Assembly: GCF_058153355.1 (NCBI RefSeq)
Contig: NZ_CM177019.1
Strand: one strand, 5' to 3'
DNA length: 64,000 nucleotides
A program made the position numbers. Positions 40,801 to 49,800 of the stretch are shown piece after piece; position 1 is the stretch's first letter, and the number at the start of each line of letters is the position of its first letter.

Positions 40801-43800
40801 ATTTTTGGAACTGGCTGCAAAACGGCGCGGGGCAGAAAACCGTAGATATCCTGATCCGTATCGCACTCATCCTTTTCTTCTCGGCGGTTGGCTGGACGGT
40901 GCTTGCCAGTTTGATCGAAAACCGACTGGCTTCGGATATTCATGGCCGCCCGCTACCGAGCGCCCGCACGCGTACTCTGCTGACGCTGTTTCGCAACGCG
41001 CTGGCGGTGATTATCAGTACCATCACCATCATGATTGTCTTGTCAGAAATCGGCGTCAATATCGCGCCATTGCTGGCAGGTGCCGGGGCATTAGGGCTGG
41101 CTATCTCGTTTGGTTCGCAAACGCTGGTGAAAGATATCATCACCGGCGTGTTTATACAGTTTGAAAACGGCATGAATACCGGTGATTTGGTGACTATCGG
41201 GCCGTTGACCGGCACTGTGGAACGGATGTCAATTCGATCGGTGGGCGTGCGTCAGGATACCGGGGCGTATCACATCATTCCGTGGTCTTCGATTACCACC
41301 TTTGCTAACTTTGTCCGCGGTATTGGTTCGGTAGTGGCAAATTATGATGTTGATCGCCATGAAGATGCTGATAAAGCCAATCAGGCACTGAAAGATGCGG
41401 TAGCGGAATTGATGGCAAACGAAGAAATTCGCGGGTTGATTATCGGTGAACCGAACTTTGCCGGGATTGTCGGCTTAAGCAATACCGCATTTACACTGCG
41501 AGTTTCGTTCACTACGCTGCCACTCAAACAGTGGACGGTACGCTTTGCCCTCGACAGCCAGGTGAAAAAACATTTCGACCTGGCGGGCGTTCGCGCGCCA
41601 GTGCAGACTTATCAGGTGCTGCCTGCTCCGGGCGCGACCCCGGCTGAACCGTTGCCGCCGGGGGAACCAACGCTTTAACGCTGGCGATTGACAAAACGGC
41701 GGCGCTGCTCGTCGTTCATAAAGGTCCAGGCAATAAAGCGACTCTGCTTTTGCCCCTGGGCCATCTCTTTTTTAACCACTTTCACCGCGCCCACGTCCGT
41801 CAGAGCACGATACAACGGCGGTAAGTTTTCGCCACGAGATACCAGCGAGGTAAACCACATCACCTGCTTCGCGAAGCCTTTGCTCTCTTCAATCATCTTT
41901 TTGATAAAAGCCACTTCACCGCCTTCACACCACAGCTCCTGTTGCTGACCACCAAAGTTCAGTGCATCGTCTTTGTTCAGCCCCAGGTTACGCCGTTTAC
42001 GCTCACTACCCGCCCGTGCCGCAGCGGCGGAATCGTGGAATGGCGGGTTACACAAGGTCGCGTCGTATTGCTCGTTTTTGTGGATAATACCGTTAAAAAT
42101 CGCCCCGCTCTCTTTCTGCCGACGCAGACGAATGGCGCGGTTAAGCCCCGGATTAGCACTGATGATCGCCTGCGCACTGCTTAACGCCTGGCTGCTGGTG
42201 TCACTACCGGTAAAACGCCAGCCATATTCATGTACGCCAATCAGCGGATAAATACAGTTCGCACCAACGCCGATATCCAGAATGCTGGCATTAGCTGGAA
42301 TTGTTCCGCTTGCTTCAGCCAGTAAATCGGCAAGGTGATGAATATAATCCGCCCGGCCCGGTACTGGCGGGCAGAGAAAACCGTCCGGGATATCCCAGTT
42401 CGCTACGGCGTAAAAATGGGCCAGCAACGCCTTATTGAGCGCCTTCACCGCCAGCGGATTGGCAAAGTCTACGCTTTGCTCCCCGGCAGGTGTAAGCGTG
42501 AGGAATTGCCTGAGTTCAGAATTGACCTGACAAAGCGTGGCAAGATCGTAGCGGCTGTGATGACGGTTGCGCGGATGCAACCCCGGTTTCTGGGCGGACA
42601 TAGCATTCTCCTTTAAGCAGCGGCGTAAGATACCCGCATAACGCGACAGGGTAAATATCTGGCTGCGTTTATCATTCCCCAAAACCTTAACATGGCTATG
42701 GTTTACGGCAATTCATCATAAAAATCAGCATCATGCATGTCATTGATTTGTCTTATTTTGTAAAAATATATCGTTCAAAAAACAAGCACATCTCTGTCAA
42801 TTTTTTGCGTCATTTTCATCGTCCAGGCGACCTACACTTATCAGGCACTACCCGTTGTATTTATGAGGATGTCATTATGAAAAAGTGCCTCACACTACTG
42901 ATTGCCACCGTCCTGAGCGGAATCTCTCTCACGGCTTATGCCGCGCAACCGATGAGTAACCTGGACAGCGGTCAGCTACGGCCCGCCGGTACCGTTTCGG
43001 CAACTGGCGCATCAAACCTAAGCGATCTGGAGGATAAACTGGCAGAAAAAGCGCGCGAACAAGGCGCGAAAGGTTATGTCATTAATTCCGCGGGCGGAAA
43101 TGACCAGATGTTCGGTACTGCAACCATCTACAAATAACCCCACCAACGTAACTGCATTCGCCTCTGGATGCAGTTTTCGCCTGTTTTGTAATCAAAAAAC
43201 ATCAAATATGAACGCAATGTAAATAAATGTATTTCTTTTTCGCGCAATGGGTGATAGAAAATCGCGCCAAGTGATAATGCTTATCAAAATTATTATCACT
43301 TGCACGAACGCTATCACGGGATTAACAGTGGCATCGCATCCGCAGAGAGGCTTTCTCGTGACAGTGAAAATTTCAACATATAAGAAAAAGTTACCTGCAA
43401 AATGGAAAACAATCGCAATTTCCCTGCCAGACAATTTCATTCGCTCACGTTCTTTGCCGGTCTTTGTATTGGCATCACGCCTGTGGCACAGGCACTCGCT
43501 GCCGAAGGGCAAGCTAACGCGGATGACACGCTGGTTGTCGAAGCATCAACGCCTTCGCTTTACGCGCCACAACAATCTGCCGATCCGAAATTCTCGCGTC
43601 CGGTAGCAGATACTACCCGCACGATGACGGTGATTTCTGAACAAGTGATTAAAGATCAGGGTGCAACCAACCTTACCGATGCGCTCAAAAACGTCGGCAC
43701 ATTGCCGTAATGCCGATCAGTTAAGGATCAGTTGACCGATCCAGTGGCTGTGTAAGAATCCGGAAACGCTCACTTGTTTCCGGATTTTTTTATGCACATT

Positions 43801-46800: not shown

Positions 46801-49800
46801 CGCTGCCGTATACCCCGGAGCACGCCTTTACCTTATGGAGCCAGTATCAGGCAACCGATGATATTTCCGTTGGTGCGGGCGCACGCTATATCGGCAGTAT
46901 GCATAAAGGTTCTGACGGCGCGGTGGGAACGCCAGCGTTTACCGAAGGTTATTGGGTCGCCGACGCTAAACTGGGGTATCGGGTTAATCGCAATCTCGAC
47001 TTCCAGCTAAACGTCTACAACCTGTTTGATACCGATTACGTCGCCTCAATCAACAAGAGCGGCTACCGTTATCACCCAGGTGAACCAAGAACGTTCCTGC
47101 TTACCGCCAATATGCATTTCTGATTCAGATGTGGGGCGCAGGGCTCACTAATGTTGATGGCGAGAACAGGACTGCCTGATGCGCTGCGCTTATCAGGCCT
47201 ACAAGGTTGTGCAATGCATTGAATTCACATCATTTGGTAGGCCGGATAAGGCGTTCACGCCGCATCCAGCATGAACAAAGCACCTGCTGTTAAAAATCGG
47301 TGTAGGGTAAAAGCCCCACTTTTTGGAGAACTTGTATGATGTACCACATTCCCTGCGTGTTATCGCCACAGGACGTCGCGCGGTTTCGTGAACAACTGGA
47401 ACAAGCCGAATGGGTTGATGGACGCGTCACCACCGGCGCACAAGGTGCGCAAGTTAAGAACAATCAACAGGTCGACACCCGCAGTGCGTTATACGCCGCC
47501 CTGCAAAATGAGGTGCTGAACGCGGTTAACCAACATGCATTGTTCTTTGCCGCTGCCTTGCCGCGTACCCTTTCCACGCCGCTGTTTAATCGTTATCAGA
47601 ACAATGAAACTTACGGTTTTCATGTGGATGGCGCAGTACGCAGTCACCCACAAAACGGCTGGATGCGCACTGACCTTTCTGCCACGCTGTTTTTAAGCGA
47701 TCCACAAAGCTACGACGGCGGCGAACTGGTCGTTAATGACACCTTCGGGCAGCATCGGGTAAAACTTCCGGCAGGCGATCTCGTGTTGTATCCCTCCAGC
47801 AGCCTGCATTGCGTGACGCCCGTAACCCGCGGCGTACGAGTGGCATCATTTATGTGGATCCAGTCGATGATCCGCGATGATAAAAAGCGCGCCATGCTGT
47901 TCGATCTGGACAACAATATTCAGTCGCTGAAAAGCCGCTATGGTGAAAGTGAAGAGATCCTGTCGCTGCTCAATCTTTATCATAATCTGCTGCGGGAATG
48001 GTCGGAGATCTGACGCTTGAACTGCCCGAGTTCGTCCCTATATTAGCTACACTTAACTGTACAAGCATTGATATGGGGAGGACGATATGGCATCCGGTTG
48101 GGCTAACGATGACGCCGTCAACGAACAGATCAACAGTACAATTGAAGATGCGATTGCTCGTGCCCGGGGTGAAATTCCGCGTGGCGAGAGCCTGTATGAA
48201 TGTGAAGAGTGCGGCGCCCCCATCCCGCAGGCCCGTCGGGAAGCCATTCCTGGCGTGCGCTTATGCATTCACTGCCAACAGGAGAAAGATTTACAAAAAC
48301 CAGCTTATACAGGATATAATCGCAGAGGTTCGAAAGACAGCCAGTTACGTTAACTGCAACTGGCGGGATGTTTAGTGAGTGTAATTTGTATTTTGCGTGG
48401 CATTCCGTGCCTTTAACGCTGCCGTGAGCACCACGCGGTACAAAACGGATTCATAAATACAACAAATAAATGGTTTATCAGTATGTTAGATATCAATCAA
48501 TTTATTTGAACAAGGCGGTCAATTCTCTTCGATTTTATCTCTCGTAAAAAAACGTGATACTCATCACATCGACGAAACAACGTCACTTAAACAAAAATCA
48601 CCTGCGAGAGATTAATTATGAAAACTATCAATGCTGTTGTTGCTGCTATGGCTCTTTCAACTCTGTCATTTGGCGTGTTTGCCGCGGAACCGGTAACGGC
48701 ATCCCAGGCACAGAACATGAATAAAATCGGCGTGGTTTCTGCCGATGGCGCATCCACCCTCGATGCCCTGGAAGCGAAACTGGCTGAGAAAGCTGCGGCT
48801 GCTGGTGCCAGCGGATACAGCATCACTTCTGCCACCAACAACAATAAATTAAGCGGAACTGCGGTTATCTATAAGTAATTCGTAGGCCGGATAAGGCGTT
48901 CACGCCGCATCCGGCAACAGGTGCCTGATGCGACGCTACAGCATCTTATCAGGCCTACAAAATCCGAACCGTTGGACGGATAAGGCGTTGACGCTACGTC
49001 CAGCACAAGTATTTCCCTGTCTGTTTGCCGACAGACGCATATGCTCTAACCCTCATTGATCCTATGTTACCCTTGTTTGCCCGTCCGTCACTGGACGGGC
49101 TTTTTTTTAGCTGGCTAACTGCTGATAGAAAGCCTGCAACACCTCTTCCGGCATACCAATCTGCCGTGCCGCATCACAAATGGCCTGCCAGCTTCCCGCA
49201 TCCAATGGAATCCCCTGCTCCTGCCGTTCGCGACGCGTGTTAACTTCCCACTCGCCCGGTAGCAAAATCGGCTTATCGTCATCATGCGGCGAGGCTTTCA
49301 CCCACTCGGCAAAGGCTTCGGTCTGCGCACTACAATCCGGCGCGCCGAACAGTTCCGGGTTGATGATGATAGTGGTCATGCAGTTAATAATGGCATCGGG
49401 ACTGGTTTGTAACGTTTCCTGATGCGTCGTTTTACCGCCGGAAAGCGCCCCGCCAAAAATTTCACACATCGCCGCGAGGGCGTAGCCTTTATGTTCGGCA
49501 AAGGTCAACAACGAACCCAACGGCGACTCCTGCATTACCGCCGGATTTGTCGTCGGTACGCCGTTAACGTCAATCAGACAGCCTGGCGGCACGGGGACGC
49601 CTTTATGCCAGGCGACGCGAGTTTTACCAAATGCGATGGCGCTGGTGGCGTAATCGAGCAACAGCGGGAAATTATCTTTACGTGGGAAAACCACACAGAA
49701 CGGGTTGGTTCCAAAGCGGCTGTCGCGACCGTGGAACGGCGCGACCATTGGAATACCGACCACGCTAACAAAGTGGATAGAGACAAACCCCGCCGCTGCA

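Follow-up and report, generated by a model that had tools for sequence, protein, structure and literature searches.

In a 64,000-nucleotide stretch of contig NZ_CM177019.1 (NCBI RefSeq assembly GCF_058153355.1), hereafter the window, a complete copy of the insertion sequence (IS) IS4 interrupts fiu, the gene for a catecholate siderophore receptor, and is bordered by two different short repeats. The right repeat is the native fiu target, and the left repeat is, to judge from its sequence, the 13-bp duplication of an IS4 insertion at another site, the aroA terminator in the aroA-ycaL spacer. We regard it, with moderate confidence, as probable that one boundary of this IS4 was copied, guided by homology, from the flank of another IS4 copy, through either ectopic gene conversion or templated repair.

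The unmatched left repeat and its counterpart near aroA

IS4 lies at 43708-45133 on the forward strand, in the direction of fiu. The 12 bases abutting it are GGCACATTGCCG on the left and CCCCGGCGTGGG on the right, and these form no direct repeat, as a preliminary description of this DNA had noticed. The right-hand CCCCGGCGTGGG (45134-45145) is the native 12-bp target, present once in uninterrupted fiu and once in the window, and it equals the right junction of canonical fiu::IS4 alleles. Alignment to those alleles places a foreign 13-mer, CGGCACATTGCCG, at 43695-43707 in the position of the left 12-bp duplication; it occurs once in the window, and its first C is common to fiu. Read from left to right, fiu sequence extends to AAAACGT(C) and is followed by the 13-bp aroA-site duplication and then by IS4.

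Eight bases, AAAACGTC (43688-43695), are shared in our flank table by the left target arms of fiu and aroA-ycaL. The switch from fiu to aroA-type sequence falls somewhere within them, the fifth A and everything further left being fiu. On the opposite side, the right target arm TGCGTTTTTT (45146-45155) follows the native repeat and, together with the target hairpin, scores as terminator-like.

Alignment to uninterrupted fiu, a step the preliminary description had recommended, defined the junction as 13 nt plus IS4, with no standard direct repeat. When 43695-45133 is removed, a 760-codon open reading frame (ORF) is restored that aligns without gaps to fiu of K-12 (96.7% identity, 4 amino-acid differences) and of strain 2020CK-00188 (98.0% identity), so that the net insert is 13 nt and IS4, and zero fiu bases are lost. 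Gene order is normal for about 10 kb on each side, the left side (fiu-mcbA-rlmF-ybiO) matching relatives over 10.7 kb. The small deletion or rearrangement at insertion that had first been suggested is thereby replaced by a different account, in which the left repeat was substituted by the 13-mer of the aroA site.

To trace this 13-mer, we compared a 51-nt query spanning the left junction with 5,426 complete E. coli genomes, the set to which all genome counts below refer. A perfect 50-nt match was obtained at the left junction of aroA-ycaL::IS4 in 177 genomes, and the 20 bases directly abutting the window IS4, AAAACGTCGGCACATTGCCG, are identical to that junction. Chance or decay of a former duplication is ruled out, as a 20-nt identity directly abutting IS4 cannot be mutational. 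In strain SMS-3-5, where both junctions were read, the locus runs TATCAAAACGT / CGGCACATTGCCG / IS4 / CGGCACATTGCCG / GCGTTTTTTTT, a true 13-bp duplication. The corresponding right junction is present in 180 genomes; an apparent deficit of right junctions (71 versus 177) proved to be an effect of search sensitivity that disappeared with a longer query. Without IS4, the site is the terminator hairpin of aroA, AAAACGUCGGCACAUUGCCGGCGUUUU (−16.7 kcal/mol).

The hybrid junction of the window is absent among the 5,426 genomes and gave 0 matches in a collection of one genome per species. The three other possible combinations of fiu and aroA junctions were likewise found in 0 of 5,426 genomes, a search that did not extend to combinations with the duplications of other sites.

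The insertion itself is common in kind. IS4 occupies this fiu position in the same orientation in 42-45 of the 5,426 genomes, and in the four copies that we read base by base (HS13-1, M160133, OZ040274 and OZ039820) a perfect 12-bp duplication, CCCCGGCGTGGG, stands on both sides of the element; OZ040274 and OZ039820 had been suspected of a non-canonical left junction until this reading showed them to be canonical. The canonical truncated Fiu fragment occurs on more than 1,000 contigs of the protein collection, including S. dysenteriae Sd197 (SDY_0792). It comprises 110 aa and ends in NADQLRIS, and the window fragment, which is 102 aa long and ends in GTLP, is shorter because the 13-mer moves the reading frame onto the TAA of IS4.

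Furthermore, in other E. coli and Shigella strains IS4 lies reversed at exactly this position of fiu (proteins P0006, P0012 and P0014), their Fiu fragments ending in residues read from the reverse complement of the IS4 right end. Because the same position is occupied in many genomes and in both orientations, this site is evidently a recurrent IS4 hot spot that has been hit repeatedly and independently.

The lineage of the window is poorly represented among finished genomes, as the best identities to any complete E. coli genome reach only 98.6% on the left of the insert (10.7 kb, 33000-43695) and 98.2% on the right (11.9 kb, 45134-57000). The nearest complete genomes are EC42405, 2013C-4282, WL297, E200086 and 2020CK-00188. 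Segments left and right of the insert map to the same base of 2020CK-00188, and fiu is uninterrupted both there (base reading) and in E200086 (alignment coordinates). The empty fiu site of 2020CK-00188 carries the private single-nucleotide polymorphisms (SNPs) of the window (GAT... and ...GCTGG), which are absent from the aligned canonical fiu::IS4 strains HS13-1 and M160133. Since these SNPs are shared with the nearest relative read, which has an empty site, and not with the aligned canonical strains, the insertion evidently arose in place within the window lineage; they also rule out that the region with fiu::IS4 was imported as a whole from a different lineage.

An independent assembly confirmed the junction as real. 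A protein identical to the truncated product of 102 aa was recovered from the Logan assembly of run SRR8656992 and from one further sample, and the Logan contig of that run (L004) is 99.99% identical to window positions 33401-43717 and holds the join of fiu, 13-mer and IS4. Logan contigs are built from de Bruijn graphs with k = 31 (PMC12424806), and the two loci have only 8 bases in common, so the join must exist in the reads. Bases adjoining multi-copy insertion sequences are error-prone in polished assemblies, and the second case described below comes without independent support; yet an artefact of assembly or polishing at the repeat boundary is highly improbable, because the k = 31 assembly contains 31-mers spanning fiu bases, the 13-mer and the start of IS4, and no graph path of this kind arises without real reads.

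The end point of L004 is itself informative. The contig stops at base 10 of IS4, and its final 31-mer, AAAAACGTCGGCACATTGCCGTAATGCCGAT, is the last that belongs to the fiu context alone; the following one would also occur in an aroA-type junction, so that a stop is expected here if that genome carries IS4 at aroA-ycaL. We infer that the aroA-type junction is present in the SRR8656992 read set, and thus in that genome.

A second hybrid insertion, target preference and possible mechanisms

A comparable substitution was observed in IMG/VR contig IMGVR_UViG_2874945390_000002 (L015), where IS4 interrupts the tail tape-measure gene of a prophage at reverse-complement coordinates 2295-3720. The interrupted gene reads GTACTC / CACCTGTGTGGAG / IS4 / CACCTTTTCGGTG / GCGTTTGTCC, compared with GTACTC CACCTGTGTGGAG GCGTTTGTCC in the uninterrupted gene; here the right copy is the replaced one, and the gene is otherwise intact around IS4. 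Its foreign 13-mer, CACCTTTTCGGTG, equals the duplication of an IS4 site in the rpoD terminator (rpoD-mug spacer), which in IAI39 reads CAAACGC / CACCTTTTCGGTG / IS4 / CACCTTTTCGGTG / GCGTTTTTTATC and is found in up to 277 genomes. Donor and recipient sites have GGCGTTT (7 nt) in common at the switch. Among the IMG/VR loci, 9 of 10 distinct complete IS4 insertions have perfect duplications, L015 being the exception. Neither the L015 hybrid nor a canonical IS4 insertion in the tape-measure gene occurs in the 5,426 complete genomes.

The target preference of IS4 offers a context for both cases. Across about 40 distinct left flanks (from IMG/VR, Kosakonia, Photorhabdus and E. coli), an A-run lies roughly 16-20 nt from the IS end, and complete copies show 12-14 bp duplications with a T-run on the right. 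The window arms, AAAAACGT and TGCGTTTTTT, fit this pattern, in keeping with a published description of the arm specificity of the IS4 subgroup as "spectacular" (PMC2266710). Several of the sites are intrinsic terminators or their look-alikes, namely the aroA terminator, the rpoD terminator and the stretch inside fiu. The arms are nevertheless loosely conserved: identity of at least 7 nt next to the duplication was found in 8 of 818 pairs of distinct left flanks, and identity of at least 6 nt in 20 of 818 pairs of distinct sites.

Terminator-like IS4 sites were noted at window positions 45132-45155, at 4324-4350 of locus L034 and around 2000-2013 of locus L038. At such sites, composed of an A-run, a GC-rich hairpin and a T-run, it is the hairpin that becomes the duplication.

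Under the copying model, IS4 would have entered fiu by normal transposase action at the terminator-like target AAAAACGT / CCCCGGCGTGGG / TGCGTTTTTT, the right junction being the canonical product. The left boundary would then have been made or re-made by copying from a second IS4 at the aroA terminator, with DNA synthesis or heteroduplex extending from inside IS4 out through its left end, over CGGCACATTGCCG, and back into fiu at AAAACGTC. One end-point of the tract would thus lie in IS4 and the other in a microhomology owed to the preference of the element for targets built of an A-run, a hairpin and a T-run. A possible trigger would be a transposase cut at one IS end, followed by one-ended break repair, or gap filling at insertion that switched to the donor flank. 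Presumably the donor copy resided in the same genome, and the copying may have taken place at insertion or afterwards.

This model calls for identity at both ends of the tract, and such identity is present, with IS4 on one side and the 8 nt of AAAACGTC on the other. An arm identity of 7-8 nt in both swap cases, compared with 8 of 818 random pairs at 7 nt or more, favours a join guided by homology; a homology-independent process would yield it by chance in roughly 1-2% per case.

Several observations weigh against copying. The aroA copy of the window strain was not seen directly, as the aroA locus lies outside the window, and a search with the exact AroA protein of the relative EC42405 retrieved, apart from EC42405, just a metagenome contig whose site is empty, and not the window strain. 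The L015 case is a single IMG/VR contig of unknown assembly method, and SNPs within IS4 are uninformative on the length of the tract and on its donor. A homology of 7-8 bases is far below the usual requirement of RecA-type recombination, so a microhomology annealing step must be assumed. Finally, the two insertions that carry a swap are young and private to their lineages, and for the junction combinations searched the widespread copies in fiu and at aroA yielded no swap. This pattern argues for a swap at or near the insertion event and fits an origin at insertion better than later conversion.

This last point is shared by the main rival, which we rate as rather unlikely, the remaining rivals being minor. 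According to it, IS4 jumped from aroA to fiu with the left duplication of its former site (13 nt) retained as a 5′ flap on the non-transferred strand; the flap was ligated into the 12-nt gap instead of fill-in, and replication fixed the hybrid, with no homology needed. Such a single event would match the young, private status of both insertions, would explain why the replaced segment has the exact length of the donor duplication (13 nt for 12), and could act at either end, as the left swap in the window and the right swap in L015 would require. The aroA 13-mer is moreover palindromic and could fold and mislead second-strand cleavage.

Against a flap stands the chemistry of related elements. 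In IS10 and IS50, two members of the IS4 family, both strands are cut flush by way of a hairpin formed at the transposon end, and IS4 possesses the YREK motif linked to that chemistry. A flap does not predict 7-8 nt of identical arm in both cases, a match found in about 1% of random pairs of sites, and the prevalence of perfect duplications among the distinct IMG/VR insertions speaks against it as well. No swap was found at the three common chromosomal loci, as judged from junction counts and hybrid searches for fiu and aroA and from IAI39 only for rpoD-mug. On the side of a flap, IS4 itself has never been studied biochemically (PMC2266710). That the swapped repeat is a by-product of IS4 transposition, be it as a donor duplication retained as a 5′ flap or as a gap filled on a donor-flank template, we consider unlikely.

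A two-step origin is very unlikely. It supposes that the aroA arm, the 13-mer and IS4 transposed together from a pseudo-end, and that the left fiu duplication was subsequently lost by replication slippage between the two AAAACGTC repeats. With 8-bp direct repeats spaced 20 bp apart, such slippage would yield the exact observed sequence; however, a pseudo-end unlike the IS4 inverted repeat and a second rare event are both required, other genomes lend no support, and L015 would need the same pair of accidents. A transposon with such a pseudo-end would also leave a left fiu duplication, which is absent here.

Ordinary homologous recombination between IS4 copies, with inversion or translocation exchanging the flanks, is the usual cause of unmatched duplications, and the fiu and aroA copies would be mutually inverted on a K-12-like map. 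It is nonetheless barely credible, because it moves a whole flank, but the difference here is confined to 12-13 bases, directly to the left of which fiu resumes; the flank alignments refute reciprocal IS-by-IS recombination and IS-mediated inversion. An origin by full excision and then ectopic repair was set aside, since it would convert both sides, and a duplication-less insertion at a break with large rearrangement finds no adjacent deletion or duplication, only 13 nt and IS4 having been gained.

The IS4 copy, the fiu allele and their neighbours

The element in fiu belongs to the IS4 subgroup of the IS4 family by its length, inverted repeats, transposase domains and conserved target arms. 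As the preliminary description had stated, it measures exactly 1,426 bp, and its ends lie where that description had put them; its terminal inverted repeats, TAATGCCGATCAGTTAAG (43708-43725) and CTTAACTGACTGGCATTA (45116-45133), agree at 16 of 18 positions. The intact transposase gene (43792-45120, forward strand) encodes 442 aa with the Pfam domains Nterm_IS4 (PF13006) and DDE_Tnp_1 (PF01609), scores 304 bits with NCBIfam NF033592 (IS4 family transposase; cut-off 115), and shows the YREK motif, Y(2)R(3)E(6)K, at 44710-44754. The identical direct duplication of 11-13 bp typical of IS4 is absent in the window, with CGGCACATTGCCG on the left and CCCCGGCGTGGG on the right. This is an anomaly of one copy and no argument against IS4 identity; such a duplication is present at the same fiu site in other genomes.

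The window copy is 2-6 SNPs apart from those of HS13-1, M160133 and SMS-3-5, and IS4 copies of other strains diverge from it only from position 368 onward. Just upstream of the transposase ATG, at 43757-43791 on the forward strand, RNA folding predicted a hairpin followed by U7 (−19.8 kcal/mol, z-score −6.5, with 0 of 200 shuffles equally stable). This hairpin is a likely stop for transcripts from the fiu promoter. So close to the left end of IS4, it would keep read-through transcription from reaching the transposase gene and give the insertion a polar effect.

Copies of the E. coli-type element were also encountered elsewhere. The exact 30-mer of its left end lies on at least 16 contigs of the Kosakonia oryziphila REICA_142 draft (L039-L054), which suggests recent transfer and expansion, as well as in Photorhabdus khanii NC19 (L055) and on a 265-bp Methylobacterium mesophilicum contig (L056) that may be contamination. 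The scan of species representatives for IS4 left ends returned mainly Kosakonia contig ends, which hold one flank only and are thus uninformative on swaps.

The gene fiu is split such that no receptor can be made, in agreement with the preliminary description, and is by its sequence a null allele encoding a 98-residue fragment followed by 4 foreign residues. Translation and gap-free alignment to intact fiu assign codons 1-98, that is, the signal peptide and the start of the plug domain, to the 5′ fragment at 43402-43695 on the forward strand, with the Pfam Plug domain covering residues 68-98. The 5′ ORF (43402-43710) has 102 codons; codons 99-102 (GTLP) come from the foreign 13-mer, and the stop is the TAA made by the first three bases of IS4. 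Placement of the insertion at codon 102, as originally proposed, holds for the canonical allele only, whereas in the window fiu ends at codon 98.

The 3′ fragment (45134-47123, forward strand) runs from the last base of codon 98 to codon 760 and the stop, and aligns with NCBIfam NF007349 (catecholate siderophore receptor Fiu) at model positions 99-760 with 1348 bits. After removal of the insert the gene is a full-length equivalog match to Fiu; as it stands it is disrupted. An additional ORF (44922-47123, forward strand) begins at an ATG within IS4 and continues in frame across the IS4 right end into fiu codons 99-760. It is found in every same-orientation fiu::IS4 allele, lacks a signal peptide and is probably meaningless.

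Upstream, a Fur-box-like sequence, GATAATGCTTATCAAAATTATTATC (43273-43297, forward strand), lies in the fiu promoter. By visual comparison it agrees with 14 of the 19 positions of the Fur consensus and, in the upstream alignment, is the same as in K-12 MG1655 and 2020CK-00188, so this putative Fur box is intact, as previously described. Downstream, ybiX (47336-48013, forward strand) is intact and matches NCBIfam NF003972 (PKHD-type hydroxylase YbiX) at full length. Transcripts from the Fur-regulated promoter run into the IS4 hairpin and its U7 and probably terminate there, which makes a polar effect on ybiX plausible. Extragenic palindromes of the repetitive extragenic palindromic (REP) type lie between fiu and ybiX (47140-47270) and recur in the window at 19364-19407, 27436-27481 and 48881-48924.

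The preliminary description had also proposed that loss of fiu could be adaptive, a reading for which the case is weak. Deletion of fiu alone changes the minimum inhibitory concentration (MIC) of cefiderocol by at most 2-fold, compared with a 16-fold rise upon deletion of cirA and fiu together (PMC5740388). As loss of fiu alone barely shifts this MIC, no adaptive story is needed, and the site preference of IS4 sufficiently explains the recurrence of the allele.

Implications and relation to known systems

At the level of the organism, the allele in the window joins other fiu null alleles at this known hot spot of IS4 and is of minor consequence alone. Our literature searches found no paper linking fiu and IS4, and no description of an exchange of target duplications between two IS4 loci without rearrangement. 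While the fiu::IS4 insertion itself is known in kind from many genomes, the swap of a repeat without rearrangement, in two cases, represents an unusual variant of processes already known: aberrant duplications and gene conversion between copies of an insertion sequence.

The broader implication is that an unmatched target duplication need not mean decay, deletion or rearrangement, as the repeat appears exchangeable between copies while the neighbourhood stays intact. Look-alike terminator targets give IS4 copies short homologous arms, which appears to let copying spill past the ends of the element. Pipelines that pair IS ends, date insertions or infer inversions by means of duplications would misread such copies.

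If the swap arises during transposition, it would offer new information on how IS4 cuts and joins DNA, suggesting that the element is not always cut flush via a hairpin in the manner of IS10 and IS50. A hybrid duplication would then record the donor copy, so that the donor-to-target history of IS4 jumps could be traced by sequence only.

Compared with canonical IS4 insertions, the window copy has the same element, repeats and transposase, the same target of A-run, GC hairpin and T-run, and the same right junction; it differs in that its left copy is the duplication of another IS4 site, with 13 nt instead of 12. Among fiu loss alleles such as SDY_0792 of Sd197, it shares the IS4 position and a truncated plug-domain fragment, and is distinguished by the length of that fragment (102 aa versus 110 aa in the canonical allele).

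Unmatched duplications resulting from IS-by-IS recombination, through inversions and deletions, are common in Shigella and Yersinia genomes. The window resembles these products in that one copy bears the repeat of another copy's site, but no rearrangement accompanies it; 12-13 bases are changed, and the gene continues on both sides.

Insertions without target duplication have also been described at DNA breaks, together with large deletions or duplications (Ngan et al., bioRxiv 10.1101/2024.06.02.596822). In common with the window, these are recent copies without a matching duplication for which a cause other than decay is required. They involve large rearrangements and lack junctions of the transposase type, whereas the right junction in the window is canonical and nothing is rearranged.

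Template-directed repair after transposon cleavage is familiar from synthesis-dependent strand annealing at the Drosophila P element and from synthesis-dependent microhomology end joining. We know of no description of such templated repair for IS4 or for bacterial target duplications. Copying of the left boundary from the aroA site would nevertheless share the essential features of these systems—a broken end repaired off an ectopic copy, the flank of the template copied along with it, and a join made in short homology.

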